DNA of 46,525 bases from Hausera hauseri. Lineage: Eukaryota. Shown here one piece after another: positions 6,318-44,020 of the stretch (positions are counted from its first letter, which is position 1; each line of letters opens with the position of its first letter). The notes under the pieces were generated by a model. It made no database searches and was not told the DNA's origin. It worked only from the letters and a program-made list of their open reading frames with translations. Both the position numbers and the translations under genes were made by a program. The DNA lies in NCBI GenBank assembly GCA_046269625.1, contig JBJURY010333269.1:1-46525 (forward strand), written 5' to 3'.

Positions 6318-7151
6318 ATGGCTCAAAAGAAATTGCTTGATGATAAGCGTAGTCTTCATCATATTGTAGATGAAGCAGCTAACAATACGAGTGATAAGGA
6401 TTGTGCAAAATCAGATAATCGCTGCTTCTTCGGAATGCGTAAGGGTGTAGAGAAGGATGATATTTACGCTCCTCATTGGTGCTTCGCTCCATTCAATTAT
6501 GGGGGTCTAGATGCTTATAGCGATATTTACATCAATCTGGAGCGTTTCTATCGTATCTCCAAGAATAAAAAGGGCTATCGAGCCTGGGTGAACTACGTCA
6601 CTAAGCGTTCCCCTGTTAAAGATGTGTTTATCAAGAACACTAAGCGTAATGCTTATGATGGTGGTGTTTATGTGGATGTGAATTGCCACTACAAGAAGCT
6701 GCTTGCAGCGACCATTGCCCTACGTCAGTGTTCTGAATTCCCTGAATGTCTTGATGTGTTTATGCGTCTTCGTCGTCGTATGGATGAAGATGCAGCATTC
6801 TTTATTGCTTGTATTATTCAATCAATTGGTAAAGATCAATACAAGCTATGGGTTGATGGTGGACATTCTGTATATAGTGGAAACTATCGTCTAATTGATA
6901 CGCTTAAGGTGTTTAATGGTGTACGAGTAGATAATCCAGCATATGGATTTGAATTCTGGGGTGGACATAAGCTTAAGCGTAATTATGAAGAGGAGAAAGG
7001 CTCAGTAAATGAAGTGTTTGCTAGCTTGGTGAAACAAGTGGAAGTTGGTGAAGGGTGGAATAAGCGTAAGAAAACCACTTGGAAATCTCTTCAACCGTTT
7101 ATTCAGTACGTTAGTACGACTCTCAAACTGATTAAGGAGAATCATGCCTAA
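6318..7151 (+). CDS. Hypothetical protein heading the ligase cluster (277 aa)
   Basis: Long ORF, AAGGA RBS, overlaps the next gene. Confidence 0.85.
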   Translation: MAQKKLLDDKRSLHHIVDEAANNTSDKDCAKSDNRCFFGMRKGVEKDDIYAPHWCFAPFNYGGLDAYSDIYINLERFYRISKNKKGYRAWVNYVTKRSPVKDVFIKNTKRNAYDGGVYVDVNCHYKKLLAATIALRQCSEFPECLDVFMRLRRRMDEDAAFFIACIIQSIGKDQYKLWVDGGHSVYSGNYRLIDTLKVFNGVRVDNPAYGFEFWGGHKLKRNYEEEKGSVNEVFASLVKQVEVGEGWNKRKKTTWKSLQPFIQYVSTTLKLIKENHA

Positions 7152-7773
7152 AGTGTTTATCGTTGATGGTAATTATGAATATGCTGCAATGTTCCGTCGT
7201 AATGCATGGGAGATTGTGGATAGCGTAGAAGAAGCTGATCTAGTACAATTTACTGGCGGTGAGGATGTGTGGCCTGGAATGTATGGGGATAATGCACATC
7301 CTGCTTCTTCCTTCAATGTTCAACGAGATATGACAGAATTGGGTGTATTCAATCATGCACATTCTCTTGGGATTCCTGTTGCTGGCATTTGTCGTGGTGG
7401 CCAGTTTCTTAACGTCTGCTGTGGCGGTCGAATGTATCAGCACGTTGAATTGCATGCTACTGGAATGGGCCATCACATCCTTGATGTGAAGACAGGGGAA
7501 CACATCTACGTCAGTAGTACACACCATCAGATGATGCTACCTGGACCTAATGCTGAACTAGTGGCTACGTCTAGACTTGGTGGTAAGCGTGAATGGTTTA
7601 CTAACGAAGTGTATGAGACAGATTTCTCTGATGAGGATATTGAGGTGGTGTTCTATAAAGATATGAAAGCATTGTGTTTCCAGCCTCATCCTGAATTTAA
7701 TAAGCCGGAATATGAGCGTATGACGCAATATTATTTTGAGCTTATTCAATATTATTTTGGCCTTAAGGCGTAA
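7144..7773 (+). CDS. Class I glutamine amidotransferase-like / peptidase C26 (gamma-glutamyl hydrolase) family
   Basis: FTGGEDV, GICRGGQFLNV (catalytic Cys), STHHQ, QPHPE (His-Glu). Confidence 0.92.
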   Translation: MPKVFIVDGNYEYAAMFRRNAWEIVDSVEEADLVQFTGGEDVWPGMYGDNAHPASSFNVQRDMTELGVFNHAHSLGIPVAGICRGGQFLNVCCGGRMYQHVELHATGMGHHILDVKTGEHIYVSSTHHQMMLPGPNAELVATSRLGGKREWFTNEVYETDFSDEDIEVVFYKDMKALCFQPHPEFNKPEYERMTQYYFELIQYYFGLKA

Positions 7774-7780
7774 TTAATAA

Positions 7781-7864
7781 GAGCCTGTGGTGGAATAGGT
7801 AGACACAGCAGACTTAAAATCTGCCGCCATAAGCGTGAGGGTCCGAGTCCCTCCAGGCTCACCA
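7781..7864 (+). tRNA. tRNA-Leu(UAA)
   Basis: Acceptor GAGCCTG/CAGGCTC, anticodon arm GCAGA-CTTAAAA-TCTGC, long variable arm, encoded CCA. T-loop reads TCCGAGT instead of TTCGA. Confidence 0.93.
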
Positions 7865-7883
7865 ATATAAGGAGCTATCACGA

Positions 7884-8123
7884 ATGAAAGTGTATAAATG
7901 TATTAGATCATTCCCTCAGAATGATGATGGATTTATGCGACTTGGTTTTCATACATCATTATTGAAAGCTAAGCGCGCTGCTATTGCAGAGATGAATTTC
8001 AGGAAAGAACCAGAAGACAAGATGCTGAAGGTTGTTGATTGGAAGGAATACATTCCAGGAATGTGGTCTCATACTGATAAATATGATGTCCAATATTACA
8101 TTGAAGAAATCGAGGTGGAATAG
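7884..8123 (+). CDS. Hypothetical protein (79 aa)
   Basis: AAGGAG RBS; abuts the next gene. Confidence 0.8.
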   Translation: MKVYKCIRSFPQNDDGFMRLGFHTSLLKAKRAAIAEMNFRKEPEDKMLKVVDWKEYIPGMWSHTDKYDVQYYIEEIEVE

Positions 8124-8831
8124 ATGAAAATTGCAATTCTCAGTAGCGTAGCAGGGAAGAGCAGCAAGCGTCTCGCTAATGCTCTCAAGTTCAACAAGAT
8201 TGACGCTGTTGTGGTTAAGCCTAATGATGGCGACAATATTCCTGAAGATGCTACACACGTCTTCAGCTATGGTTGTTCTACACGTAGCCATAAGCTTCCT
8301 CGTCTGAATGCTGTTGAAGCTATTCGCACTTGTGTAGATAAACCTAAGACCTTTGATGCGTGTAAGCGTGCTGGTGTTAGTCATGTGGAATACACCCTGG
8401 ATAAACAGGATATTCCTCGTCATTGGGACTGGGTGGTTATCCGTGATAAGCAAGATGGTCGTAAGGCGGAAGGACTTGCTTATGCTGAAAACATTCCGAA
8501 TGAAATTCCTGATGGTGTGCTCTTCACTGAGTATTATGAACACCGATATGAATATCGCATTGTTGTGTTTCGTGGTAAGGTGGTAGGACGCTATTACAAG
8601 CGTGAAGATGCTGGTGACTGGTATTTCAACAATCAACCTGCTAAGGGCTTTGAATTGATGGATAAGCATTGCATCAAGGCTGCTAAGGAGATTGGTATTG
8701 ATTATGTAGGCTTTGATGTTGTAGCCAAGGACAAGAAGACGTTCAAGATTCTTGAGGCTAATAGCGCAGCACTTCTCACTGACGAAGGTGAGAATGCTAT
8801 TGTGGAATACTATCTTAATCTGGAGGGTTAA
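8124..8831 (+). CDS. ATP-grasp ligase (RimK/glutathione synthetase-like)
   Basis: CVDKPKTF, EYRIVVF, GIDYVGFDVV, ILEANSA. Confidence 0.88.
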   Translation: MKIAILSSVAGKSSKRLANALKFNKIDAVVVKPNDGDNIPEDATHVFSYGCSTRSHKLPRLNAVEAIRTCVDKPKTFDACKRAGVSHVEYTLDKQDIPRHWDWVVIRDKQDGRKAEGLAYAENIPNEIPDGVLFTEYYEHRYEYRIVVFRGKVVGRYYKREDAGDWYFNNQPAKGFELMDKHCIKAAKEIGIDYVGFDVVAKDKKTFKILEANSAALLTDEGENAIVEYYLNLEG

Positions 8832-8834
8832 TCT

Positions 8835-10178
8835 GTGTGCGGTATTGTTGGTGTGGCCGGTTTCATCGGTCTTAAACAAGACAAGATGATGGAAAAACTC
8901 CTGATTCTTGATTCTATGCGTGGTCTTCACTCTACCGGTATTGTTGCTGTCCCTAAGTTTGGTGATCCTACTATTGCTAAAGCTGTTGGCAATCCCTTCG
9001 AGCTGTTTAATACGGTTACGTATGACAAGGCTATGAAGAAGAGTAATTGTGTCATTATTGGACACAATCGCTATGCCACCCAAGGGCAAGTGAATCGTAA
9101 GAATGCCCATCCATTTAATGCTGGTGGCTTGTATGGTGTACATAATGGTACGCTGAAGAATAAGTATAAGCTTCTCGATCAGCAATTCTTCGATGTAGAT
9201 AGTGAGAATCTCTACCATCATATGTACCATAATGGTATTGATGATTTGCTTGCCACTATTGATGGTGCATGGGCACTGGTCTGGTGGGACAATGAAGAAA
9301 GTAGTCTAAATTTCCTTCGTAATAAGGAACGTCCTCTGTTCCTGGCTGAAGATTTGAAGACTGATACTCTCTACTGGGCCAGTGAGAAGTGGATGCTAGA
9401 AGTAGCTGCTGCATATTGTGATGTTGAATTCCGTCTGATTGAAAGTATGAAGGAAGATATGCATCTCAATATTGTAATTGACGAGAAGGGCCATATGGCT
9501 AAGCCTGTAGTCACTCATCGTCCTTCTACGTATGTCAATCCTCATGTTATCCAACATTCCACTGGCAATTGGAAGCAGGATATGGCTACAGCCTTTGGTA
9601 TGACTGCGGAGGAAGTGGAAAATTTTACGGCCAAGGAGGTAGCTGCCCCTTCTGATAAAGGTCAAACCAAGGCGGTGCTCACCCTTCGTAAGACAGCTAC
9701 TAAAGATGATCTATATGCTGTGGGAGAAGTACTTACGTTGGAATGTCTTGGGACCGGTAGGGACAGCTTTGGTGGCCGTTATCTGTCTTTCTTTGATAAG
9801 GCTAATGATGAGGCTGACATCCGCCTTTACATCAAGCAACGTAATGATGAGTTTGAAGACCTTGGTGGGCACATGGTTGAAGTGTGTATTAAGGAAGTAG
9901 CTAGTAGCTTTGGTAAGAAGCATTACAAGCTGGACGGTTGGAAGGTTAAGGATTTGGGTGAAGTGGAATCTATTACCATTCCTCCTGAAAAAGAAATCCT
10001 AGACTTTAAGGGCAAACCAATCACTGAGGAAAACTTTACTACCAAGTATGGTGTGTGTGCTCATTGTGATGGTTATGTCAATCCAAAGCTCGATTTCCGC
10101 TATACGACTGGAGGTGAAACTATTTGTCACGAATGTGTAACCACGATTTATGGTAATAACGTTGTTCAATTGCAATGA
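8835..10178 (+). CDS. Class II (Ntn) glutamine amidotransferase with extra C-terminal domain and Zn finger
   Basis: MCGIVG, RG, GHNRYAT, NAHPF, HNGT, VDSE; terminal CAHC..CHEC. Confidence 0.92.
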   Translation: MCGIVGVAGFIGLKQDKMMEKLLILDSMRGLHSTGIVAVPKFGDPTIAKAVGNPFELFNTVTYDKAMKKSNCVIIGHNRYATQGQVNRKNAHPFNAGGLYGVHNGTLKNKYKLLDQQFFDVDSENLYHHMYHNGIDDLLATIDGAWALVWWDNEESSLNFLRNKERPLFLAEDLKTDTLYWASEKWMLEVAAAYCDVEFRLIESMKEDMHLNIVIDEKGHMAKPVVTHRPSTYVNPHVIQHSTGNWKQDMATAFGMTAEEVENFTAKEVAAPSDKGQTKAVLTLRKTATKDDLYAVGEVLTLECLGTGRDSFGGRYLSFFDKANDEADIRLYIKQRNDEFEDLGGHMVEVCIKEVASSFGKKHYKLDGWKVKDLGEVESITIPPEKEILDFKGKPITEENFTTKYGVCAHCDGYVNPKLDFRYTTGGETICHECVTTIYGNNVVQLQ

Positions 10179-10621
10179 GAATTGGTGAACTAGATTATGA
10201 TGTAGATGCGTTAGGACGTATTCTTAAGAAGAAAGGGAAAGGTGAACGTAAAACTTTTCCGGATAAGGATGGTTATTTAAAGTATTCATTACAACAAAAC
10301 GGAAAGACATTGAACTTTTTTGTACATCGTTTTGTTTATCAGTATTTTAAAGGACCTATTCCCGATACCATGACGGTAGATCATATTGATGGAGATAAAT
10401 TAAATAATCAAATTGATAACTTACAATTACTTAATGCAAAAGAGAATGCAATCAAAGGTAACGCTAGAACTTGGATTGTGTTTCGACCCAACCACTCTTC
10501 ATTAGTTGTCTATAATATGGAAGAATTCTGTCGTAAGAATGATCTCCACCCTGGACACATGAGAGCTACAGCAAAACTCAATAGTAAACATAAAGGATGG
10601 TATTGTTATGAGCGCAATTAA
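10175..10621 (+). CDS. HNH homing endonuclease
   Basis: VHRFVY..VDHIDGDKLNNQIDNL; AT-rich. Confidence 0.9.
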   Translation: MRIGELDYDVDALGRILKKKGKGERKTFPDKDGYLKYSLQQNGKTLNFFVHRFVYQYFKGPIPDTMTVDHIDGDKLNNQIDNLQLLNAKENAIKGNARTWIVFRPNHSSLVVYNMEEFCRKNDLHPGHMRATAKLNSKHKGWYCYERN

Positions 10622-11408
10622 TTTCATGGTAGGGGCCGATCCCGAACTGTTCATCCGTCAAAATGGTGTATTTAAGAGTGCCTTCGGGTTGATTCCTGGC
10701 ACCAAACAACAACCACATAAGGTGAATAAGGGGGCAGTGCAGATTGATGGTATGGCGCTGGAATTCAATATTGATCCAGCTAAGAGCGAAGATGAATTTA
10801 GTGTGAATGTCCAAACGGTGATGGCATGCTTGCAAAGCATGGTCCCTGGATATGAGATGGTCGCATCTCCAGTCGCCCACTTCGATCTTGAATACTTCAA
10901 GCAGCAGCCTGATGCAGCTAAGGAACTTGGTTGCGATCCTGATTTCAATGCATGGGAAGATGGTAAGGAGAACAAGAAGCCGGATGGTGATCGTCCTTTC
11001 CGCACTGCCTCTGGTCATGTGCATATTGGATGGACCGCTGACAAGAATGTTAGTGATCCTAATCATCAATACCAGGGAAATTTGATTGTTAAGAACTGTG
11101 ATTTCTTCCTGGGCCTCATGTCTCTCATGTATGACGACGATACTGAGCGACGTAGCCTTTACGGCAAGGCTGGAGCATGCCGCTATAAGCCATATGGGGT
11201 TGAGTACCGCACCCTAAGCAATCGTTGGACGGATAGTGAACAACTTATGCGGTTGGTCTATCGCAATACTATCGCAGCAGCGCAGGCGACGGTCAGCGGT
11301 AATTTCCTGTGGGAGCGTCACGGAGACATCCAACACATCATCAACACATCGGATGTAGACGATGCTCGTCGCATCCTTGACATCGAAGGCATTGAATATT
11401 ATGGATGA
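10608..11408 (+). CDS. phiEco32-like COOH-NH2 ligase type 2
   Basis: GADPELF, IPGTK..P, DGMALEFNI, GCDPDFNAW, RTASGHVHIG, YGKAGACRYKPYGVEYRTLSN. Confidence 0.9.
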   Translation: MSAINFMVGADPELFIRQNGVFKSAFGLIPGTKQQPHKVNKGAVQIDGMALEFNIDPAKSEDEFSVNVQTVMACLQSMVPGYEMVASPVAHFDLEYFKQQPDAAKELGCDPDFNAWEDGKENKKPDGDRPFRTASGHVHIGWTADKNVSDPNHQYQGNLIVKNCDFFLGLMSLMYDDDTERRSLYGKAGACRYKPYGVEYRTLSNRWTDSEQLMRLVYRNTIAAAQATVSGNFLWERHGDIQHIINTSDVDDARRILDIEGIEYYG

Positions 11409-12039
11409 GTTGTCGATTAATGATGCCCAACAGCAATATAGTGATTCTTTGGTGATGGTGTCTAATCGTCCTGCTCACATCCAACGTGTGTGGCAGGATG
11501 GGAAGAAGATCAAGATGATGATTGTCTTCCTCGAAGATTTCTCCATGGCCGTTGCTGAATGGGGCAAGTATGCCATCTCTGCACCAGACAAACGTCTAGG
11601 CATGGTTAACCACGTAGACACTGCTGTATGGATGACTCGTCGTCCTGTACGACGCTATAAGGTGGGCTTTGCTAAGGAAAACATCAAGGCTAACATCGTG
11701 CAAGGATTCATGGGTGACGAGAATGCACGTAATGCTGTGGTGTATTTCAATAGTCCAGGGCTACACAACGCTATCATGAATATTTATCCAGATATTCAAG
11801 CAGCCTACGATTGGGCTAGGGAATGCCAAGGTTGTTGGGCATTCGATAAACAATTTGCTATTGACCATCAGGGTCAGGTCTATTACAAAGACCAGCATAT
11901 TGTCGGGTATCTCACAGAGAAGAAAAAGAATAAGGTTGAGAACATTAAGTGGTCTATTGGTAATGAACATCTTTCTATTCTCCTAGGAGGTAATTGTGAG
12001 AACACTTTCCGCGCTCTTGAACAGTCCGAAGAAGCTTAA
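11401..12039 (+). CDS. Hypothetical protein within the ligase cluster
   Basis: ATG 11401 overlaps the previous stop; phage-typical codon usage. Confidence 0.8.
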   Translation: MDELSINDAQQQYSDSLVMVSNRPAHIQRVWQDGKKIKMMIVFLEDFSMAVAEWGKYAISAPDKRLGMVNHVDTAVWMTRRPVRRYKVGFAKENIKANIVQGFMGDENARNAVVYFNSPGLHNAIMNIYPDIQAAYDWARECQGCWAFDKQFAIDHQGQVYYKDQHIVGYLTEKKKNKVENIKWSIGNEHLSILLGGNCENTFRALEQSEEA

Positions 12040-13270
12040 AGATGGTGATGTAGGTATTGAGATTGAGATGGAGGGTAAGCAACTGTATGCTGCCCGTACA
12101 TTTGAAGCTGTTAGCCATCTGTGGAATATTGAGGACGATGGAAGCCTTCGTGGACGATATCCGGATTCCAAGTGTGAATACGTGCTGAAGAATCCTCTGT
12201 CTGTAGAGGCTTCTAAAGAAGCTTTGGCTAAGATGGAAGAAATGTTGGCTGGTAACGAGGCTGTTGTCAACGACAGTCCTCGTACAAGCGTTCATATCCA
12301 CATGAACGTTCAACGTATGACACATTCTCAGTATTGCAATCTGGTATACACCTATCTTCTTCTAGAGAATGCTCTGGCTACGAAGTGGGGAGAACGTCGT
12401 ATCGCCAATCGCTTCTGCCTTCGTCTTCGTGATGCTGAAGATGCGATTGACCATCTGAAGAAGGTGTTCAATAATGATTATTGGCTATTGGAATTGAGTG
12501 AAGAGAATATTCGATATGCTGCCATCAACCTAGCTTGCTTCAAGAAGTATGGCTCTATTGAATTCCGTGGAATGCGTGGTACTACTGACAAGGCTGTGAT
12601 TGGTGAATGGATTGACATTCTGTTCCAGCTTAAGGACTATGCCTGCTCTGTTAAGGATGTTCATGAGGTTCGTAATGATCTAATGACTATCGGGGCTAGC
12701 AAATGGGCCAAGAAGGCCCTTGGAAACTTCTACAACAGCTTTAATAAGGATGTTGTATACCAGAGTGTGGTCGAAGCCTATTCGCTCTCTATGGACCTTC
12801 CTATGGCCTATGTCTGTCAACGTTATCAATATGAAGATTATGTGGAACAGCCTAAGGTAGAAGTGAAAGCAGCTAAGAAGGAGGTGGTTGATAAGGCACC
12901 TATTTGGCCTAATGCTGATCAGTGGGATGCTGATCAAAGGGCAGAATGGATTGACAAAGAAGCTTCTATTATCTGGCATGATTCAGATGAGTATAATGAA
13001 GATGGGGATGTGCCTGTTTGGTGTTATGACATGGCTATTAATCATCTGGATAAATATGCTAAGGAAGCGGCTGAATATCGTGCTAGGCAAGCTAATGCTC
13101 CTGTGAATTTTATTCGTGAAGCTGCTCCTATTCGTTGGCAGGACTTCGTAGCAGAGCAACCTATTATTGCCCCTGGTGCAGAAGCTATTGAACAAGCTGT
13201 TCAACAAATGGAGCAATTCTTGGCAGATAGACAACATCCTCAAGAATGGGAAGAAGATGACATGTTCTGA
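11996..13270 (+). CDS. Putative amidoligase (glutamine synthetase-fold) with acidic C-terminal extension
   Basis: VGIEIEMEG, DGSLR, EYV, TSVHIHMNV, RYAAIN, GSIEFR; GGAGG RBS. Confidence 0.88.
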   Translation: MRTLSALLNSPKKLKDGDVGIEIEMEGKQLYAARTFEAVSHLWNIEDDGSLRGRYPDSKCEYVLKNPLSVEASKEALAKMEEMLAGNEAVVNDSPRTSVHIHMNVQRMTHSQYCNLVYTYLLLENALATKWGERRIANRFCLRLRDAEDAIDHLKKVFNNDYWLLELSEENIRYAAINLACFKKYGSIEFRGMRGTTDKAVIGEWIDILFQLKDYACSVKDVHEVRNDLMTIGASKWAKKALGNFYNSFNKDVVYQSVVEAYSLSMDLPMAYVCQRYQYEDYVEQPKVEVKAAKKEVVDKAPIWPNADQWDADQRAEWIDKEASIIWHDSDEYNEDGDVPVWCYDMAINHLDKYAKEAAEYRARQANAPVNFIREAAPIRWQDFVAEQPIIAPGAEAIEQAVQQMEQFLADRQHPQEWEEDDMF

Positions 13271-16123: not shown

Positions 16124-16594
16124 ATGGAATTGACACAAGCTCAATTAAAAGAGAAGTTCACATACGATGAACACTCAGGTATATTTACTAATAATAAAAC
16201 AGGCGGAGAGTATCGTGCAATCGATGAACGAGGTTATATTCGTATATCGATTAGAGGTAAGAGATACAGAGCACACAGGCTTGCTTTTCTATACATGACA
16301 GGCAGATTTCCTAAGAATATCGATCACATCAATAGTGTTGGTAATGATAATCGATGGTGCAACCTAAGGGAGTGTGAACAAGCCGAAAATTGTAGGAATA
16401 GAAAAACACCTATTAATTCTTCATCCGGTATTAAGAACGTTGTATGGGATGAGGCATCTAAGAGATGGAGTGTTGTAATCCGAGTTGATGGTGAACGATA
16501 TGATTACGGATATTTTTATGATTTAGAAATTGCTGAATTAGTTGCTATTGGTGCTCGTGTAAAACATCACGGAGGCTTTGCTAAGATTGAATAG
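16124..16594 (+). CDS. HNH-AP2 homing endonuclease
   Basis: HRLAFLYMTG, DHINSVGNDNRWCNLR, SSGIKNVVW, GYFYDLEIA. Confidence 0.92.
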   Translation: MELTQAQLKEKFTYDEHSGIFTNNKTGGEYRAIDERGYIRISIRGKRYRAHRLAFLYMTGRFPKNIDHINSVGNDNRWCNLRECEQAENCRNRKTPINSSSGIKNVVWDEASKRWSVVIRVDGERYDYGYFYDLEIAELVAIGARVKHHGGFAKIE

Positions 16595-18476
16595 GAAAAA
16601 TGTATGGACATTTGATCTGGAAGCTGATGGTCTTTTAGAAGAGGCTGCTGTGTGTTGGTGTGGAACTTTTAAGAATAAATTTTCTAAAGAATTAAAATCT
16701 TTTAGGCCACATCAAATCCAAGATATGCTTTCTTTTATGGATACATGTGATGTCCTTATAGGACATAATGTAATTGGATATGATTTCCCTTTATTGCAAA
16801 AATTGTATAAATACAAGTTTAAAGGGAAGAAAGTAGATACTCTTATTATCTCACGTCTTCTTGATCCTCAACGAAAGCCGCCGCCGAATTGCCCTAATAG
16901 AAGTATTGGAGGTAATTCTGTTGAAGCGTGGGGATGGAGAGTAGGACGAGGAAAGGTTGAGCACGAAGACTGGTCGCAATTCACAGAAGCGATGATGCAT
17001 CGCAACGTAGAGGATGTTGAAATTCAAGAACTAATCTACGATGCACTCATGCAGGAAGCTAAGGGTGGAAATTGGCGCGAAGCCTTCTTACTCACTTTTG
17101 AGCTATTTGAAAACCTCCAGAAACAAGAAGAATATGGATGGTTGGTGGATCAGCCACACATGGATAGGTGTATTAGTCAACTATCCCACTGGATTAGGAA
17201 GATTGATTTGGCAGTGGTGCCTAGGCTTCCTTATGTATTAGAAGTAGAAGAAAATAAACAGAAGGGAGAATATGGATTTCTCAAAAAACCTTTCCTCAAA
17301 TCGGGAGCTTATTCCCAAGCCGTTAGTGATTGGATGCTTAGTGTTGGTCTTGATCCTGACCTTCGTCCCGTGTCTGGTCCCTTTAGTCGAATTCTTTACA
17401 GGCCGGTAGACCTTAATAGCAATGACGAAACTAAAAACCTCCTTCTCTCTATGGGCTGGGAGCCGCAGGAATGGAACACAAACGACGAGGGGCAGCGTAC
17501 TAGTCCTAAGATGTCTAAGACTGAAGAGTTTGAAGGCGTCGAAGGAAAGGTTGGGAAGCTAATTGCTAGAAGGGTGCAAGCACGGCATCGTAGAAGCCAG
17601 ATTGAGGGGCTTAAAGATTTAATTCGTCCTGATGGTAGAGTGGCCAGTGTAGTGAACACCTTAGCTGTAACTGGCCGAGCTACACACAGGAACATTGTTA
17701 ACATCCCGAAAGAGTCTAGCTTCTATGGTCATCAGATGCGATCAATCTTCACAACTCGTGAAGGATATGTACTTGTAGGTACAGATAGCGATTCGTGTCA
17801 ACTACGAATGTTAGCTGGACGTATGGGTAGTCAGGCATATATTGATGCTATTCTTACTGGTGACAAGGCTAAAGGAACAGATAATCACAGTCTCACTAAG
17901 AAGGCGGCTGATCTAGAATCTAGAGATATTGCCAAGAATGTGATGTATTGTTTATTGTTTGGTGGCGGAGATGTGAAACTTGGTAAGACTGCGCTCAAGC
18001 CTGGAAAGGGAGCAGAAGTCCGTAAAGCTTTGTATAAGGGCTTGGATGGTTTGGAAGATTTGGTTGGGCGATTGACTAAAGAGTGGAAAGCTACAGCAAA
18101 GAAGCGATTTAATCCAAAATTCAATCGTATGGAATATTACGACGGAATGATTACAGGGTTAGATGGAAGGCCTATCAAAGTACCTTCTGAGCACATGCTT
18201 CTTGTTTATTTGCTTCAATCTGATGAATCCATCATGATGACTAAGGCATACAATCTAGCTAATGAAAGATTGAGTGAACGGTTCAAGTATGGCGAAGATT
18301 TTGGATTCGTTGTATGGATGCACGATGAGTACCAGGTCGAATGTCGAGTTTCTATCGCAGATGAGGTATGTAGTATATGTGAACAGGCCATCGTAGATGC
18401 TGGCAAGTTCTTTAATATCCTGTGTCCACATAAAGGTGATTCAAATGTTGGTAGAAACTGGGCTGAAACGCATTAA
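16587..18476 (+). CDS. Family A DNA polymerase with 3'-5' exonuclease
   Basis: FDLEADG, GHNVIGYDFP, TGR, motif A VGTDSDSCQLR, motif B RDIAKNVMY, motif C HDEYQ. Start is TTG at 16578 or 16587. Confidence 0.95.
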   Translation: MNRKNVWTFDLEADGLLEEAAVCWCGTFKNKFSKELKSFRPHQIQDMLSFMDTCDVLIGHNVIGYDFPLLQKLYKYKFKGKKVDTLIISRLLDPQRKPPPNCPNRSIGGNSVEAWGWRVGRGKVEHEDWSQFTEAMMHRNVEDVEIQELIYDALMQEAKGGNWREAFLLTFELFENLQKQEEYGWLVDQPHMDRCISQLSHWIRKIDLAVVPRLPYVLEVEENKQKGEYGFLKKPFLKSGAYSQAVSDWMLSVGLDPDLRPVSGPFSRILYRPVDLNSNDETKNLLLSMGWEPQEWNTNDEGQRTSPKMSKTEEFEGVEGKVGKLIARRVQARHRRSQIEGLKDLIRPDGRVASVVNTLAVTGRATHRNIVNIPKESSFYGHQMRSIFTTREGYVLVGTDSDSCQLRMLAGRMGSQAYIDAILTGDKAKGTDNHSLTKKAADLESRDIAKNVMYCLLFGGGDVKLGKTALKPGKGAEVRKALYKGLDGLEDLVGRLTKEWKATAKKRFNPKFNRMEYYDGMITGLDGRPIKVPSEHMLLVYLLQSDESIMMTKAYNLANERLSERFKYGEDFGFVVWMHDEYQVECRVSIADEVCSICEQAIVDAGKFFNILCPHKGDSNVGRNWAETH

Positions 18477-18897: not shown

Positions 18898-19123
18898 TAT
18901 TCTGTTTGAAGATTTGTTTGACCCGGAGGTGGGCACTATTGCTGGTGATCTGTTGGAGTTTGATGGTGTGATTGCTTACGCTTTCCACAAAGCCACTGAT
19001 AACGAAGCACTGTTTGAAGTGCAATTTGCTGACGGCTTGGCTCGTATGTTTAAGCTGTCTAAGATTGCAGAGTTCTCTATTCAACAAACTAAGGAAGAAA
19101 AGGAAATTACTGATGGCGCTTAA
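18887..19123 (+). CDS. Hypothetical protein (78 aa)
   Basis: AAGGAG RBS. Confidence 0.75.
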   Translation: MKISILFEDLFDPEVGTIAGDLLEFDGVIAYAFHKATDNEALFEVQFADGLARMFKLSKIAEFSIQQTKEEKEITDGA

Positions 19124-19799
19124 TCTCAATCGACTCCCCAAGGCTAATTCAGATATGGCTCCTCAGGAGCTTCTGGATATTGGTAACTACCCTGGCCGAG
19201 TGGTGCAGATTATTGATCTTGGTCTGCAAGCTCAACGTCCTTTCAAGGGTAAAGAAAAGCCTCCAGCATACGAAGTGAATATGACGTATGAACTAGCTGA
19301 TGAATTCATGAAGGATAAGGAAGGGAATGAACTGGAGGATAAGCCTCGTTGGTTGTCTGAACGATTCCCTGTCTACAGTCTACAAGCTGAGAATAGTAAG
19401 AGCACCAAGCGTTATCTAGCTCTTGATCCTAAGCAAGATCATGGTGGTGATTTGACGGCTCTTATTGAATGCCCTTGTAATGTCACTGTGGTGCATAACG
19501 AGAGCGGTGGTAAAACTTACGCTAACGTTGGTGGCATCTCCGCTATGCGAGCTAAGGATGCTGAGAAGGCTCCGCCTCTGAAGAATGAGGCTAAGGTGTT
19601 CACTCTGGATGATCCTGATATGGAGGTTTACAACAGTCTTCCTGAATATCTGCGGAAGATTATTGAGGCTAATCTGGAATTCGAGGGCTCTAAGCTTCAG
19701 AAACTGCTCGGTGGCAAGGTTGCTCCTAAGGAAGAGCAGAAGGCTAAGCCTGCTCAGGAAGAAGAAGAAGAAGAGAATTCCGGACAGAATCCTTGGTAA
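19113..19799 (+). CDS. Putative single-stranded DNA-binding protein
   Basis: Start MALNLN after AAGGA; beta-rich core; acidic tail ending in an aromatic residue (EEEEENSGQNPW); lies between polymerase and exonuclease. Confidence 0.7.
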   Translation: MALNLNRLPKANSDMAPQELLDIGNYPGRVVQIIDLGLQAQRPFKGKEKPPAYEVNMTYELADEFMKDKEGNELEDKPRWLSERFPVYSLQAENSKSTKRYLALDPKQDHGGDLTALIECPCNVTVVHNESGGKTYANVGGISAMRAKDAEKAPPLKNEAKVFTLDDPDMEVYNSLPEYLRKIIEANLEFEGSKLQKLLGGKVAPKEEQKAKPAQEEEEEENSGQNPW

Positions 19800-20245
19800 T
19801 GGAATTAGACGATCAGAACTCCAAAGTTTGTAGACTGTGTTCTGAACGGAAACACGTATCTGAATACCACCCTAATAAACAATGCAAACTTGGTGTCGTA
19901 GGTACGTGTAAAATCTGTTCAACTATTCGTGTACAAAAATGGTATTCAGATAATCGATCACGGCGACAAGACTATTCGAATACTAAAAATCGATCTAGGA
20001 AAGATCAAATAATTGACCACTTTGGAAACAAATGTTTAGATTGCCAACAATCATATCCTAGATGTGTCTATCAATTCCACCATCTTGATCCGACTAAAAA
20101 GGATATGAATCCTAGTGCTGCAATCACTATGGGTGCTGAAAAGATGTGGAAAGAATTAGAAAAGTGTGTAATGCTGTGTGCGAATTGTCATATGATTCGC
20201 CACCATATTGGAAAGGAGGGCGTCGATGAAGCAAGCACTTATTGA
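19799..20245 (+). CDS. HNH homing endonuclease (Zn-binding)
   Basis: CRLC..CKIC; CLDC..FHHLDP..CVMLCANCH; TAATG coupling. Confidence 0.88.
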   Translation: MELDDQNSKVCRLCSERKHVSEYHPNKQCKLGVVGTCKICSTIRVQKWYSDNRSRRQDYSNTKNRSRKDQIIDHFGNKCLDCQQSYPRCVYQFHHLDPTKKDMNPSAAITMGAEKMWKELEKCVMLCANCHMIRHHIGKEGVDEASTY

Positions 20246-21028
20246 CGCAGATTAGGTATTCTCCTCTATGAAGTAGGGTTTGGTGTTGAGGCAGCATGGA
20301 AGGGGGAGGGCAAGGAAGGCCCCCCTCCCTTCGATAAGGCTGCTGAGATGTTAGAAAATCGCATTTCACATATTCTGGCAATGTCTGAATCTTCTGATCC
20401 TATTTGTTTCTTCACTGGTAAGACAAATTTCAGATATGACATTGCAGTGACACAACCTTACAAGGAGCGTCCAGGGAATAAGCCATTCCATTTCAAGAAT
20501 ATTAGAGCGTATATTCAAGGAAAATATGAATCAATCGTCACCGTGGGAATGGAGGCAGATGACGCTATCTCTCTGGCCCAGACCGCTAGGCCATCAGAGA
20601 CCATTATTTGTACAAGAGACAAGGACCTTCGATCTGTACCTGGGTGGCATTATGGTTGGGAGTTGGGAAATCAAGCCCAATTCGGACCAGAAATTATTGA
20701 TGAGATTGGGAGCATCAAACTATCAGATAAGCGAAACAAGCTCATCGGTACGGGCGGACTCTTCTTTTATTCACAACTACTCGTGGGAGACGGAGTGGAT
20801 AGCATCCCAGGTTTGGGAGGCAAATGCGGACCTGTTAGGGCCGCAGAAATACTTGAGGGGGTCACAGACCTACGTTCTGCATTTGAGCGCGTCAGAGAAG
20901 CCTACAGGGGTCTTTACGGGGATGTGGAAGGCGATAAAAGGATGCTGGAGCAAGGCAGGCTCTTGCACATGACTAGATATTTGGATGAATGGGGTAATCC
21001 TGTGTTGTGGGAATTCCCTTATGAGTGA
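20226..21028 (+). CDS. 5'-3' exonuclease (T7 gp6/FEN-like); frame interrupted by 5 nt (TAGGT, 20253-20257) after codon 9
   Basis: AGGAGG RBS, then MKQALIDAD-stop. ILLYEVGF... resumes at 20258 in frame with the 20348 ORF, which has YK..R, MEADD, RDKDL, GDGVDSIPG. Confidence 0.85.
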
Positions 21029-21416
21029 GAGAAAGGTATGGAACAATGGAGACTGGACAGAATCAAGATTCAATAGCTTTGTCAAGGGAGGATTGCGAAG
21101 CGTTAGTCAACGCTGGCCTCCAAAATATAGTGTCCTTGCTGCAGCGTGCATCGGAACCCAGCTCAATCCAGAGTCCGGACGAATGGCTAAGTTCTATGTA
21201 TGCAGCGAGTGTAAAGGTTCATACACTGCTAAGAATGTCCAAGTCGACCACATCGAACCAATCGTTCCAACTGAAGGCTTTTCCTCCTGGGACGACCTCA
21301 TTAATCGACTCTTCTGTGAGGCGGAGGGTCTTCAAGTAGTGTGCAAAGGCTGCCACTCTTCTAAAACACAACAAGAAAATAAAGAACGAAGGGAATATAA
21401 AAAGAATGCAAAATGA
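21021..21416 (+). CDS. HNH-fold endonuclease (probably a resident replication-module nuclease)
   Basis: CSEC..VQVDHIEP..LQVVCKGCH; composition matches the phage backbone. Confidence 0.85.
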   Translation: MSERKVWNNGDWTESRFNSFVKGGLRSVSQRWPPKYSVLAAACIGTQLNPESGRMAKFYVCSECKGSYTAKNVQVDHIEPIVPTEGFSSWDDLINRLFCEAEGLQVVCKGCHSSKTQQENKERREYKKNAK

Positions 21417-22180: not shown

Positions 22181-22618
22181 TTGATGCCAAAAGTGAAAAA
22201 TAGAGATCGTGAATGTGCTAATTGCGGTAAACCATTTTCGTTAGATGACGAGGGCGCAAGAAAGAAATATTGTTGTGCCCGATGTATGAATCAAAACGGA
22301 TGGTTAAAAGGCGGTACAAAATATCGTAACTCAGAAAAAGGTAAGCAATCAATGTTTGCTTGGAGATTACGAAAGAATTTCAATCTAACTGTTGAAGAGT
22401 ACAATAACATGTTAGAAAATCAGAATCACAAATGTAAAATCTGTGAAATTGATGAGCCGATGGGTTATGGTTGGCATGTAGACCACTGCCATAACACTAA
22501 AAAAGTCCGTGGAATCTTGTGCCAACAGTGTAATCAAGGTCTCGGTTTATTCACTGATGATGTCAATAAATTACAGAAAGCTATTAAATATCTTGAAAAC
22601 AGCAGAAATTCAAGTTGA
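22181..22618 (+). CDS. Endonuclease VII-type (His-Me) homing endonuclease
   Basis: QNHKCKIC, HVDHCH, VRGILCQQCNQGLG; AT-rich. Confidence 0.9.
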   Translation: MMPKVKNRDRECANCGKPFSLDDEGARKKYCCARCMNQNGWLKGGTKYRNSEKGKQSMFAWRLRKNFNLTVEEYNNMLENQNHKCKICEIDEPMGYGWHVDHCHNTKKVRGILCQQCNQGLGLFTDDVNKLQKAIKYLENSRNSS

Positions 22619-23261
22619 CTTGATTGGTAGTTATGGTTCTGACGAAACGGTTGTAAACGCCGCACGAGTTAGTTTTCATAAAGATGCCGCTCAATATACA
22701 GAAGATCAGAATCATAAACTAATTAAATATCTAGCCAAGAATAAACATTTTAGTCCATTTAATCATTCGTTTCTGAGTTTTAAAATCAAAGCCCCAGTTT
22801 TTGTAAGTCGTCAATTAGTCAAACATCGCTTCATGCCTTGGAATGAGGTGAGTAGGCGATATGTGGATGAGGAGCCTGAGTTTTATATTCCTGAGTTCCG
22901 TATGAAGGCTGAGAACGTTAAGCAAGGAAGTAGTGAAGAGGTTCTTAAGAATGTATTCTGGCGATCAGCAGATAACTGGTACTCTCCTGAATCCCGTCTT
23001 GAAGAGATTCTCGCTGAATCTGTTGAGGCATATGAGGATATGTTAAATGCAGGTATGGCCCCTGAAGTGGCACGAGCTGTTCTCCCTCAGAACATGATGA
23101 CTGAATGGTGGTGGAGTGGTACTCTAGGGGCATTCGCTGACATGCTCCGCCTACGCCTTGATCCGCATGCGCAGAAGGAAAGCCGGATTGTAGCGGAGAA
23201 GGTTTACGCTGAAGTAGAAAAACTGTTCCCGGTTAGTATTAAAGCTTTGTTGGAGGTGTGA
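22593..23261 (+). CDS. thyX: Flavin-dependent thymidylate synthase
   Basis: VNAARVSF, HFSPF, RQLVKHR..WNEVSRRY, ARAVLP, HAQKE. Probable TTG start at 22593. Confidence 0.93.
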   Translation: MKTAEIQVDLIGSYGSDETVVNAARVSFHKDAAQYTEDQNHKLIKYLAKNKHFSPFNHSFLSFKIKAPVFVSRQLVKHRFMPWNEVSRRYVDEEPEFYIPEFRMKAENVKQGSSEEVLKNVFWRSADNWYSPESRLEEILAESVEAYEDMLNAGMAPEVARAVLPQNMMTEWWWSGTLGAFADMLRLRLDPHAQKESRIVAEKVYAEVEKLFPVSIKALLEV

Positions 23262-24507: not shown

Positions 24508-25877
24508 ATGGAACAAAGCATTCGTAGTAAACTAATTTATCAGCGTACTTACTCTCGGCCTCTCAATGATGAGGCTACAGTATTTGAAACATATGAACAA
24601 ACCATTGATCGAGTTATTGGACACCAACAATGGCTCTGGGAGCGAGCACAAGGACGAAGCCTCGACTGGGCTCAAGCAGCAGAGCTCGATGAACTGCGCC
24701 AGCTCATGGTCGAACGAAAGCTTCTTATGTCAGGCCGAACTCTCTGGCTCGGAGGTACTGAAGTTGCTAAGCGACGGGAAGCGAGTCAATTTAACTGTAG
24801 CTTCACAAACGTGGAATCAGTATATGACGTTGTTGACGTCCTTTGGCTACTCATGCAGGGTTGTGGAGTTGGGTTCCGACCTATTGTGGGTCAGCTTACA
24901 GGCTTCCAAAAGCCCATCAAAGAACTAGAGATTGTACGTAGTGAACGAACCGAAAAGGGAGGAGACCAAGAGAACAAAGAATTCTTTGAAGATGGTGTCT
25001 GGACAATCCAAGTTGGAGACAGTGCAGAAGCCTGGAGCAAGAGCATCGGTAAGCTGGTCGCTCATAAGTTTCCCGCCAGTAAACTTGTACTCGATTTCTC
25101 GCAGATTCGTCCAGCAGGAGAAAGGCTGAAGGGATATGGTTGGATTAGTAGCGGAGACGCAGCAATTGCTAAGGCTTACACTGCAATCTTTAACATCCTT
25201 AATAAGCGTGCTGGTAGCCTTCTTACTCGTATCGATATTCTCGATGTTGTTAACTGGCTGGGTACTATCCTTAGCTCTAGGCGCTCTGCTGAAATCGCTC
25301 TGTTTGAATATGGGGAAGATGAGTGGCAAGAATTTGTCGTAGCTAAGAATAATTGGTGGGAGAATAATGTTCAGCGTGCTCAAAGCAATAATTCCCTCCT
25401 CTTCAAACATAAGCCTACAATTGGAGAGCTTAAACACATCTTCGATCTTATGGTTGCTAGCGGTGGTAGTGAGCCCGGATTTATTAATGCTGAAGCTGCT
25501 ACTCGACGAGCACCGTGGTTTAAAGGTGCCAACCCTTGTGTGGAAATTCTCCTAGGTAATAAGAGTTTCTGCAATCTTTCGGAGGTGGACATTGGAAAGT
25601 TCTATGGTGATTCTTACGGCCTCCGCAGGGCTATTGAGCTGGCAGCGAGAGCTAATTACCGGCAAACATGCGTTAACCTTCTTGACGGTATTCTTCAAGA
25701 AGCATGGCATCTCAACAATGAGTTCCTCCGACTCTGTGGTGTTGGACTTACAGGAATCGTCACTAGGCCCGATCTTAAGTCTTACGACTACAGCGAGCTT
25801 CAGCGAGTTGCTACTTCAGGAGCTTACGGAATGGCTGACGAACTCCGGCTTCAACGTCCAAAGAACGTCACCTGCGT
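24508..25877 (+). CDS. nrdJ: Class II (B12-dependent) ribonucleotide reductase, exon 1
   Basis: RTYSR, GRTLW, FNC, GCGVGF, RRSAEI, NPCVEI, CNL; ends in KNVTCV. Confidence 0.9.
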
Positions 25878-26671
25878 CAATTGGCGCCTTGCTTAAGTAA
25901 TTAAGCAATGAAAACTGCGTGAATTGCTGGAAAGCTAAGGAGAAATCTAAGCCAATCAGCAGCCAAGCCTGATGCGTTTTGTAGATAAACCTATAGGAAC
26001 AAGATATAAGCATTAGGAAGGTTCAGAGACTATCCCGTGGTGGGAGTAGGTGTCAAGTGGCATCGAAGCGCGCAGCAACCTACTAGGTTGATGATATAGT
26101 CCGATCTTCTTGGAAACAGGAAGAAGTATGAAATTATATGAGATAAGAAATTCAGAGAATGATGTAGTATATGTAGGTGTTACAAGGTCTACATTAGCAG
26201 CTCGTTTTCGCGGTCACAAGTTCTATGCTAAAACAAAGACAACACCATTGTATAATGCAATGCGTAAATATGGATTTGAAAACTTCTATATACAACTTGT
26301 GTCAGAATTTGAAACAGAAGAAGAAATGCTTGCAGCAGAGATAGAGAAGATCAAATTCTATCGTGATTCAGGTGTTAAATGTTATAACGTGTCTAACGGT
26401 GGTGAAGCACATTTCGAGGTGGTTGATAAGCCAGCTTGGATTGAGAAACTAAAAAATGCACGTAAGGGTAGAAAACCGGCTCAAGGAATGAGCCATACAG
26501 ACGAGAATAAGAAGTTATTCTCTGAATATGGTAAAGCTCGCTGGGATAAATACGGACGATACCCTGATGATATTATTCTTCTGAAATTTACTGAAGCCAA
26601 AGAGAAATATGGTATTAGTAAAACTCATTATTACAGACTGGTTAAGGCTAACGACCTTAATTGAACTTTTG
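25878..26671 (+). mobile_element. Group I self-splicing intron (IA2-like), 794 nt
   Basis: P1 gcgU/caatt/Ggcgc with a U.G splice pair; P2 TTGCTTAA-GTAA-TTAAGCAA; P3 CTGCGT/GCGCAG. P AATTGCTGGAAA, Q AATCAGCAGC, R GTTCAGAGACTA, S GATATAGTCC; P7.1/P7.2 hairpins; terminal G 26671. Splicing restores TCVKPSGT in frame. Confidence 0.95.
26128..26664 (+). CDS. Intron-encoded GIY-YIG homing endonuclease with NUMOD3-like motif
   Basis: LYEI..VYVGVT..RF..H, E, YN; GMSHTDENKK. Confidence 0.9.
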   Translation: MKLYEIRNSENDVVYVGVTRSTLAARFRGHKFYAKTKTTPLYNAMRKYGFENFYIQLVSEFETEEEMLAAEIEKIKFYRDSGVKCYNVSNGGEAHFEVVDKPAWIEKLKNARKGRKPAQGMSHTDENKKLFSEYGKARWDKYGRYPDDIILLKFTEAKEKYGISKTHYYRLVKANDLN

Positions 26672-27257
26672 CAAACCCAGCGGAACCCTCAGTAAAGTCA
26701 TGGACACGACTGAGGGCGTACACAAGCCCCTGGGACGATACATCTTCAATAACGTTAACTTCGGAAAGCATGACCCGCTTGTTTCTCTCTGCCGAGAAGC
26801 TGGATATAAAGTAGTTCCTAATCCTTCTGATCCAGAAGCTGTGTTGATTACTTTCCCTGTCAAGTGGGACACTGTGAAGTTTGACACTGTTGATGGTGTG
26901 GATGTTAATATCGAATCTGCTATTAGCCAGCTTGAACGCTATAAGATGTTGATGGAGAATTGGTGTCAACAGAATGTCAGTATGACTGTTAGTTATTCAG
27001 TGGAGGAAGTAGATGGGATTGTGGAATGGCTACATGCTAATTGGGATTATTATGTTGGAGTATCTTTCCTGTTTCGGACTGACCCAACCAAGACAGCAGA
27101 AGACCTTGGATACAAGTACCTTCCACAAGCAGTCGTAACCAAGAAAGAATACGAAGAATATGTAGAGGGTTTACTCCCAGTTAATCTAAATACAGAATTT
27201 GATATGGATGAAGAATTGGAACCAGATTGTTCCACCGGCGCGTGTCCCATCAGGTAG
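26672..27257 (+). CDS. nrdJ: Class II ribonucleotide reductase, exon 2
   Basis: KPSGTLSK..EGVH; C-terminal redox pair CSTGACPIR. Spliced product is 651 aa. Confidence 0.9.
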
Positions 27258-43944: not shown

Positions 43945-44020
43945 TGGTGCCTCATGTTAGACTCGAACTAACAACCTACTGCTTACAAGACAGTTGCTCT
44001 TCCAATTGAGCTAACAAGGC
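43945..44020 (-). tRNA. tRNA-Thr(UGU)
   Basis: GCCTTGTTAGCTCAATTGGAAGAGCA-ACTGT-CTTGTAA-GCAGT..GTTCGAGT..GAGGCACCA, 76 nt. Confidence 0.93.

Follow-up and report, generated by a model that had tools for sequence, protein, structure and literature searches.

The window, that is, the whole 46,525-nt stretch of DNA analysed here, carries on its forward strand an HNH endonuclease gene and, overlapping its end, a flap exonuclease gene whose first nine codons are separated from the remainder by five nucleotides that include a stop codon. The features of the locus are the following (positions in the window):

19113..19799, +: conserved upstream gene of phrog_862 (profile match), function not assigned by the family, acidic tail
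19799..20245, +: HNH endonuclease gene, phrog_2255 (E 1.6e-31), 148 aa
20214..20219, +: strong Shine-Dalgarno (SD) sequence AGGAGG, part of the cassette
20220..20248, +: start-codon RNA hairpin, arms 20220-29 and 20239-48
20226..20252, +: replacement 5' end of the exonuclease (mini-ORF), ATG at 20226, nine codons (MKQALIDAD) with the DxD motif at their end
20250-52, +: putative take-off codon, GAT, the last codon of the mini-ORF
20253..20257, +: 5-nt coding gap with a TAG stop at 20253-55; right boundary of the mobile cassette
20255-57, +: putative, near-matched landing triplet GGT
20258..21028, +: flap/5'-3' exonuclease body, phrog_107 (E 2e-51), 256 codons with all invariant residues
20298..20332, +: G/C-rich 3' hairpin, present, not a conserved part of the element

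The stop codon of the phrog_862 gene, whose product we infer to be SSB-like, overlaps the start of the HNH gene, and the identical overlap opens the exonuclease in empty alleles. The HNH gene, which likely encodes a homing endonuclease, sits at the place where the exonuclease originally started, the first codons of that start being eroded in the window, and its ORF overlaps the mini-ORF starting at 20226. The body frame resumes at ATT 20258 and is open to TGA 21026-28. In the gapless relative L024, LVDGD runs directly into ILLYEVGF, and the window therefore has exactly five extra bases. The SD, ATG 20226, the nine codons, TAG 20253 and the body frame all lie where the sequence-only reading of this DNA had placed them. 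The gap is not an assembly slip: a single Logan contig of depth 10.1 is identical over 19700-21100 (one run, contigs only, possibly the window's own sample), and a 5-nt gap at the same codon was found in six further distinct junctions. The run search for the locus listed one sequencing run and none on record as RNA.

The window covers one entire contig from a large mixed assembly. It encodes a primase-helicase, a family A polymerase, thyX, a ribonucleotide reductase and tail and head proteins of the podovirus kind, and the best relatives with a name are CVT22, CW02 and PA11, whose records are classed as Zobellviridae; judging by this gene content and these relatives, it is a Zobellviridae-like phage. 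The contig is rich in endonucleases, with 10 of the 48 scanned ORFs matching HNH, endonuclease VII or GIY-YIG. Elsewhere in the window, the ribonucleotide reductase gene is in two parts (24508-25896 and 26661-27257), separated by a group I intron at 25868-26664 (Rfam RF00028, 116.6 bits) that contains a GIY-YIG endonuclease ORF. An endonuclease VII-type gene (22181-22618) overlaps the 5' end of thyX (22560-22620), which has no ATG near the start of homology and likely starts at TTG. Another HNH gene (16124-16594) overlaps the start of the DNA polymerase (16560-16600), which appears to begin at a TTG behind GGAGG. A cluster of glutamine amidotransferase, ATP-grasp, COOH-NH2 ligase and amidoligase genes occupies 7144-13270, as in PA11/phiEco32-like phages, and tRNA genes are present at 7781-7864 (tRNA-Leu(TAA)) and 43945-44020 (tRNA-Thr).

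Recurrence of the gap and its link to the HNH gene

Related loci were gathered in three ways: by exonuclease similarity (80 of 260 confirmed matches kept), by HNH similarity and by junction patterns, the pattern scans yielding exonuclease loci in 16/46, 3/29 (one a distant partial match), 1/19, 1/16 and 4/47 cases (the last none new). After duplicate removal, 87 distinct junctions could be scored. Nine loci with the N-terminus absent or unmatched by the profile and five without the YE anchor were left out; L014, L074 and the five loci without the anchor read gapless in their translations, and phage VPp1, also gapless, stands outside the count. A gap of 1, 4, 5, 6, 7 or 8 nt is present in 24 of the 87 junctions, always within three codons of DxD, so that the stop-containing gap, which had been suggested for comparison across relatives, does recur in related phage exonuclease genes. 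The gap classes are:

5 nt after Asp: the window, L001, L018, L019, L035, L043, L082
4 nt after Asp: L084, which occurs in several assemblies
8 nt after Ile: L054
6 nt, in frame, Leu-stop-Leu: L060, L089, L140, L168, L177, L231
7 nt after Leu: L145, which is phage Phriendly (MN062185)
5 nt after Leu, no stop: L101
4 nt after Arg CGA: L135, L178, L179, L333
1 nt: L037, L045, L123

Phriendly, a cultured phage infecting Vibrio natriegens, carries the 7-nt gap; it was plaque-purified and sequenced at 66.7-fold coverage (PMC6776788), and the main text of that paper is silent on the gap. Its record annotates the internal exonuclease ORF alone, and the exonucleases of both Phriendly and PQ867848 are annotated from internal starts, i.e., annotation truncates exonucleases of this gap-bearing kind. 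The frame of the Phriendly HNH gene (L145:1420-1911) is open for about 165 codons and is annotated as 44 aa. In L179 (1759-1800), the 4-nt gap is followed five codons on by a second, compensating 1-nt frameshift, which is either an error or a mark of a decaying allele.

The gap also tracks with the HNH gene, a point that had been suggested for checking: an HNH ORF lies directly upstream of 19 of the 24 gap junctions and 8 of the 63 gapless ones (Fisher p 7e-9, a value that overstates the link, the rows being related and not independent). In the set collected by exonuclease similarity only, the proportions are 6/9 and 1/52. Five gap loci lack a complete HNH gene. In L019 (2920-3000), it is deleted down to a 20-codon remnant ORF of its last codons and the gap is kept; L060, at a contig end, has upstream a helix-turn-helix-like tail without a family match; and L045, L101 and L168 have no HNH upstream. 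The remnant ORF of L019 still spans the SD and the hairpin; upstream translation may be needed to open the latter. Conversely, seven gapless loci of distant exonuclease lineages (including Bas93, ECBP2 and PKM.Hi.22.6) have the same HNH family, so the gap is not obligatory. All seven are outside the 73-row clade of the window (SH-aLRT 97), inside which 15 of the 15 tree rows with this HNH family have the gap. An HNH search of the genome contigs gave eight distant loci, none beside an exonuclease.

Other endonucleases also occur at this place. L018 has an unrelated HNH gene (phrog_99) before the same tail and gap. In L047 (2940-3010), a different HNH gene (phrog_59) precedes a gapless exonuclease that has GGAGG and no ATG or GTG start, which suggests an ATT start as another way to damp expression. 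Upstream of the gapless VPp1 exonuclease (L319:820-1200, KJ936628) there is an unannotated remnant of another HNH gene and a terminator-like hairpin.

An exonuclease-like N-terminus opens 52 of the 87 HNH homologues and keeps DxD in 12 of those 52, while the downstream replacement copy keeps DxD in 24/24 gap loci; the latter count is partly circular because the scoring script and patterns required DxD, and no HNH- or exonuclease-selected locus was lost for want of it. Since the HNH N-termini carry exonuclease remnants and the DxD downstream is intact, the element entered the gene at the DxD codons. Sequence comparison thus describes an HNH cassette inserted into the 5' end of the exonuclease, bringing with it the SD, a replacement nine-codon start and the 5-nt gap. 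The sequence-only reading missed that the HNH gene sits inside the exonuclease 5' end and that the mini-ORF is a replacement copy. Sister pairs place the right boundary of the cassette at the gap: L060 and L059 show 98.3% identity from the junction onward and differ upstream of it, and L018 differs from L012 by a 486-nt insert ending at the gap. On a quick IQ-TREE exonuclease tree with 22 gap rows (L179 was omitted as truncated and L333 was found later), the gap label changes 16 times, at least 8 of them forced, a scatter that would be expected for homing.

Several other arrangements were rejected. A read-through fusion of HNH and exonuclease would be without DxD, and the frames agree in the 5-nt class only and differ in L037, L084, L123 and L135. 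An intron with an intact 5' exon does not fit an upstream copy that loses DxD in 40 of 52 cases, and for a self-splicing group I intron at the junction, the Rfam intron in the window lies solely at 25868-26123.

Start-codon hairpin and integrity of the exonuclease

The stem formed by 20220-29 and 20239-48 in the window has a free energy of -12.0 kcal/mol (z -3.61; 0/200 shuffles as good); an inner stem had been drawn here before, and it is real and slightly longer than thought. The start codon is buried in this hairpin, whose end lies 1 nt short of the putative take-off codon. In eight Asp-class loci, 72 of 72 cells are paired (0/500 shuffles as high), and two of the nine pairs are changed on both sides, as DAD turns to DGD; slid controls are at most 60% paired, a control favourable by construction since the structure was drawn from the same sequences. 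Over a fixed span of 54 nt, the mean z is -1.92 for 23 gap loci, -0.39 for the 7 gapless HNH loci and 0.02 for 56 other gapless loci. A start-codon helix of at least 8 pairs ending near DxD occurs in 16/24 gap and 6/63 gapless loci, and Phriendly has a 10-bp hairpin and the gapless VPp1 none. The 3' end of the hairpin is within 1 nt of the putative take-off codon in 12 of 21 loci (1/10000 permutations, a figure inflated by related loci), the take-off position moving over four codons while the hairpin end follows. These comparisons show that the start-codon hairpin is kept by base pairing and that its 3' end follows the take-off codon. A hairpin abutting the take-off codon is the key signal that the sequence-only reading overlooked.

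The two other RNA structures proposed earlier did not stand out. Pairing of the SD with CTCCT behind the gap can be drawn and is not beyond chance (z -1.38), with no enrichment against gapless loci (p 0.62); in eight loci, SD pairing with post-gap bases holds for 82.5% of cells without any two-sided change. The 3' G/C hairpin is present at z -1.48, likewise not beyond chance, and gap loci show no enrichment for it (3' folding averages -19.1 in gap and -20.5 in gapless loci). No promoter or terminator above chance was found at the junction.

The gene, for which recent decay to a pseudogene had been named as the alternative, is not a pseudogene. Positions invariant in 63/63 gapless bodies (FR, YK.R, EADD, DKD, GD..D) are also invariant in 22/22 gap bodies, pN is far below pS in 12/12 pairs, which indicates purifying selection, and the L333 body is open over 261 codons. 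Neither the 48 window ORFs scanned nor a search of the source assembly gave a second flap exonuclease. These facts bear on the idea that the gap is a scar of endonuclease cutting whose main effect is to silence or damp a nuclease that is dispensable or toxic, with little or no need for the full-length enzyme. The burial of the start codon in the hairpin and the second frameshift of L179 would agree with it, and the missing ATG/GTG start of the HNH-bearing gapless L047 hints at favoured low expression; nevertheless, we regard it as very unlikely in view of the 22/22 intact bodies with their invariant residues under strong purifying selection, the persistence of the gap in L019 after HNH deletion and the failure to find another flap exonuclease in the ORFs and the assembly searched.

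The role of the separated N-terminus can be judged from the model of an intact relative, L023 (pLDDT 92), with a strand at residues 2-6 and a helix at residues 7-21. It resembles T5 D15 (Foldseek E 1.5e-9; with 5hp4, Z 17.0 and rmsd 2.9 over 214 residues) and folds like T5 D15, T4 RNase H and ExoIX at an identity of about 17%, the family here being phrog_107. With its first-strand Asp, EADD, DKD and GD..D, the exonuclease is by this model a predicted member of the flap endonuclease/5'-3' exonuclease superfamily. The aligned range begins at residue 21 of T5 D15 and residue 14 of T4 RNase H, by which Asp6 of L023 would fall on T5 D26 and T4 RNase H D19, which we take to be metal ligands; a D19N mutant is among the PDB titles. 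A PDB search with a single sequence gave 0 matches, and the profile and fold searches did match. The internal start at 20348 had been said to cost a catalytic Asp, and it would indeed leave out the first strand, which bears the conserved Asp pair, along with helix 7-21.

This also weakens the possibility of a split protein, in which the body is initiated on its own and joins in trans with the nine-residue peptide (or the HNH N-terminus), as in the MobE-split nrdA. Split ORFs that reassemble are known for MobA and MobE insertions (available text of Manning and Atkins, 10.1101/2022.08.31.505936), and ATG 20348 is in frame in the window. Still, a start codon with a fair SD occurs in the first 60 body codons of 2/24 gap loci, three have no start there at all, the 20348 start drops helix 1, which neither piece supplies, no dimerisation tails are added, and the HNH-fused copy decays; we consider such an assembly highly improbable. 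The internal start was rejected as not conserved among gap loci.

Codon signals and the proposed hop

An in-frame stop lies inside the junction in 21 of the 24 gap loci; L333 has the rare AGG instead, and L084 and L101 have no stop at the junction. Among the 21 gaps longer than 1 nt, the landing triplet matches the take-off codon at two or three positions in 15, and both encode the same amino acid in 11. In the 5-nt Asp class, the codons are exactly matched (GAT/GAT) in three of seven loci; the landing is mismatched in the other four, including the window, where GAT/GGT is a two-of-three match and GGT is not an Asp codon, and in six other long gaps. In the Leu class, the repeated triplets are in frame and differ at the wobble position (CTG/CTA, CTT/CTC), and in L018, the third base of the landing triplet changes together with that of the take-off codon. 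A part of this matching may come from an origin by duplication. The stops and the in-frame, wobble-varying matches are translation signals.

Upstream hairpins adjacent to the E site favour forward shifts of 70S ribosomes in vitro and reduce -1 shifts, according to the available part of PMC6321510, with the effect seen only without RF2. For gene 60 bypassing of phage T4, pairing of the mRNA leaving the ribosome is proposed as a driver (available part of 10.1101/2024.12.09.627546). Together with the translation signals, the forward push from an upstream hairpin and this pairing proposal point to a forward GAT to GGT hop. We suggest, with a probability of about 0.65, that ribosomes hop forward at the stop, aided by the 5' hairpin, and that the gap likely shields the endonuclease target. 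The ribosome would pause while peptidyl-tRNA-Asp sits on GAT and the A site holds TAG; the 5' end that it has just translated would refold behind it and favour forward movement, with the SD, brought close by the folding, perhaps also helping. The tRNA would then re-pair at GGT, 5 nt further along (three relatives have GAT there), and decoding would resume at 20258, giving a product whose length is exactly the ancestral one. On the model of T4 mobA, the gap would break the endonuclease target in the conserved DxD coding stretch and leave the protein unchanged. For MobA, it was the insert, not the polymorphisms, that blocked nicking (Manning and Atkins, 10.1101/2022.08.31.505936, available text), and from that case protection against self-cleavage may be supposed here, the gapless HNH loci of distant lineages showing that other solutions exist. 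A second possible benefit is damping of a nuclease placed under a strong SD. The hop may have low efficiency, and the 1-nt and some of the 4-nt relatives may be plain +1 shifts using the same hairpin and stop.

Three points count against the hop: the landing in the window is mismatched, the nascent chain is very short and the hairpin spacing is tight. Only 8-17 codons precede the take-off, so that peptidyl-tRNA drop-off could be high and a nascent-peptide signal would not be possible, and the 3' arm of the hairpin would lie inside the ribosome at take-off.

The alternative of ordinary recoding, which adds residues to the product, supposes a -1 or +2 shift at the 5-nt gaps, read-through at the 6-nt gaps and +1 shifts at the 1-, 4- and 7-nt gaps. 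It is the sole reading of the 1-nt class (L037, L045, L123), which can only be a +1 shift; CTT TGA C of Phriendly is the RF2 shift site named in the available text of PMC6321510, and the landing triplets are poorly matched in the R4 and D4 classes. Against it, the window lacks a slippery heptamer, and at neither -1 nor +2 is there a codon with which tRNA-Asp could pair; an upstream hairpin damps -1 shifts (same source, PMC6321510); the added residues would hit the first turn of helix 7-21, right behind the Asp pair; and none of the 87 junctions has a sense-codon insertion at this site. We therefore hold it unlikely. Its -1 variant (DAD-LG-ILLY), offered earlier beside the hop, is not supported: it has no slippery heptamer, and six relatives have in-frame gaps; a programmed -1 frameshift was rejected on the lack of an X XXY YYZ heptamer at any 5-nt junction.

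The hairpin might instead act on the RNA polymerase, melting the hybrid so that the polymerase slips forward and some transcripts lack the gap and are translated normally. In the Roseiflexus IS630 element, one base is lost through the action of a stem-loop in the nascent RNA directly 5' of the slip site (available text of PMC5009743), and the hairpin abuts the gap here too. Yet the junctions have no homopolymer motif and gaps of 4-8 nt, in-frame TAG/TGA stops or the rare AGG follow the take-off codon in 22/24, and the in-frame repeated triplets with wobble drift (CTG/CTA, CTT/CTC) follow the logic of tRNA; such transcriptional realignment seems quite unlikely. Of the mechanisms weighed, the 5-nt hop, first put forward from the sequence-only reading, is the best, with exact GAT/GAT codons in three of the seven loci of its class.

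Comparison with known systems

The likeness to T4 mobA/gene 60 holds for the architecture of the cassette. In both cases, an endonuclease cassette with a homologous replacement of the target gene ends at or near the landing codon; for MobA, a replacement region is followed by the bypass cassette and the insert's end lies at the landing codon (available text of 10.1101/2022.08.31.505936). A stop or hungry codon follows the take-off codon, Asp take-off codons occur, and the gap survives endonuclease loss. The endonuclease is swapped for unrelated families, as MobA is for other nucleases in T4-type cassettes (Manning and Atkins, 10.1101/2022.08.31.505936, available text). A 5' stem-loop refolding behind the ribosome would be common to both, analogous and not homologous: its distance to the take-off codon is 0-1 nt here and 9 nt in gene 60, and here it includes the start codon.

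The analogy fails for the target gene, the take-off stem-loop, the mini-SD and the peptide signal. The target here is the phrog_107 flap exonuclease instead of the large topoisomerase subunit, and the HNH family is another. The gaps have 1-8 nt, in contrast to 20-50 in T4-type cassettes, and the take-off follows 8-17 codons instead of 45-46. The T4 take-off stem-loop, whose 5' arm contains the take-off codon, is absent, the conserved stem here ending before the take-off codon. The nascent-peptide signal (residues 13-29) and the mini-SD 6 nt before the landing are absent as well, because nine codons before a 5-nt gap leave no room for them. T4-type take-off and landing pairs are always tRNA-compatible in the available text of 10.1101/2022.08.31.505936, whereas here the landing is often mismatched. 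Thus, the system works like T4 mobA/gene 60 but is not a member of it.

The nearest known system in size is the UUA bypass in the terminase gene of the Streptomyces phage Hau3 (Antonov 2023, PMC10732093; this and what follows from its available text). It shares short gaps (10 nt, and 7 nt in one prophage), a proposed 5' stem-loop with a flanking SD and a slow A-site codon, and its junction peptide was shown by mass spectrometry in E. coli. It differs in its trigger, a rare UUA tied to host development, in its mid-gene gaps and in that no homing endonuclease is reported in that text. Synthetic +5 and +6 stop-hops (Weiss 1987, via the available text of PMC5009743) have matched codons flanking a stop, as do the 5-nt Asp and 6-nt Leu-stop-Leu classes, but were constructs and not natural; a natural in-frame stop-hop was not known according to this 2016 review (PMC5009743, same portion). 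The Magnusiomyces mitochondrial byps are likewise mobile inserts skipped by ribosomes, tolerating imperfect take-off and landing pairs; they differ in having 27-55 nt, mitochondrial ribosomes, an unused codon instead of a stop and no endonuclease cassette. We found no reports of the exonuclease gap system in the open-access literature (listings and abstracts, with subscription papers and preprint supplements outside this scope).

Natural bypassing is known from T4 gene 60 and its kin, the Hau3 terminase and yeast mitochondrial byps, and the gene 60 cassette has been called unique and its origin a puzzle (available text of Manning and Atkins, 10.1101/2022.08.31.505936). The loci described here would add an independent, endonuclease-linked case with a natural series of gaps from 1 to 8 nt, in which one site joins +1 frameshifting, stop-hopping and bypassing. 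The wider proposal, to which we give slightly less than even odds, is that they represent a distinct, minimal class of bypass: a module of about 45 nt with a 4-8-nt hop and no peptide signal, having many origins or retunings at four take-off codons, including the first natural in-frame stop-hops and offering homing endonucleases a general route into essential phage genes. This module would consist of the SD, the start-codon hairpin, the take-off codon, the stop and the landing triplet, the hopper being a newly initiated ribosome, and the six Leu-stop-Leu loci would be the natural in-frame stop-hops. If true, homing endonucleases would have, besides introns and inteins, a third means of residing inside essential phage genes. 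A short cassette and a cultured phage on a harmless and fast-growing host would make it a testbed for the push by hairpin refolding and for gaps as a form of immunity to endonucleases.
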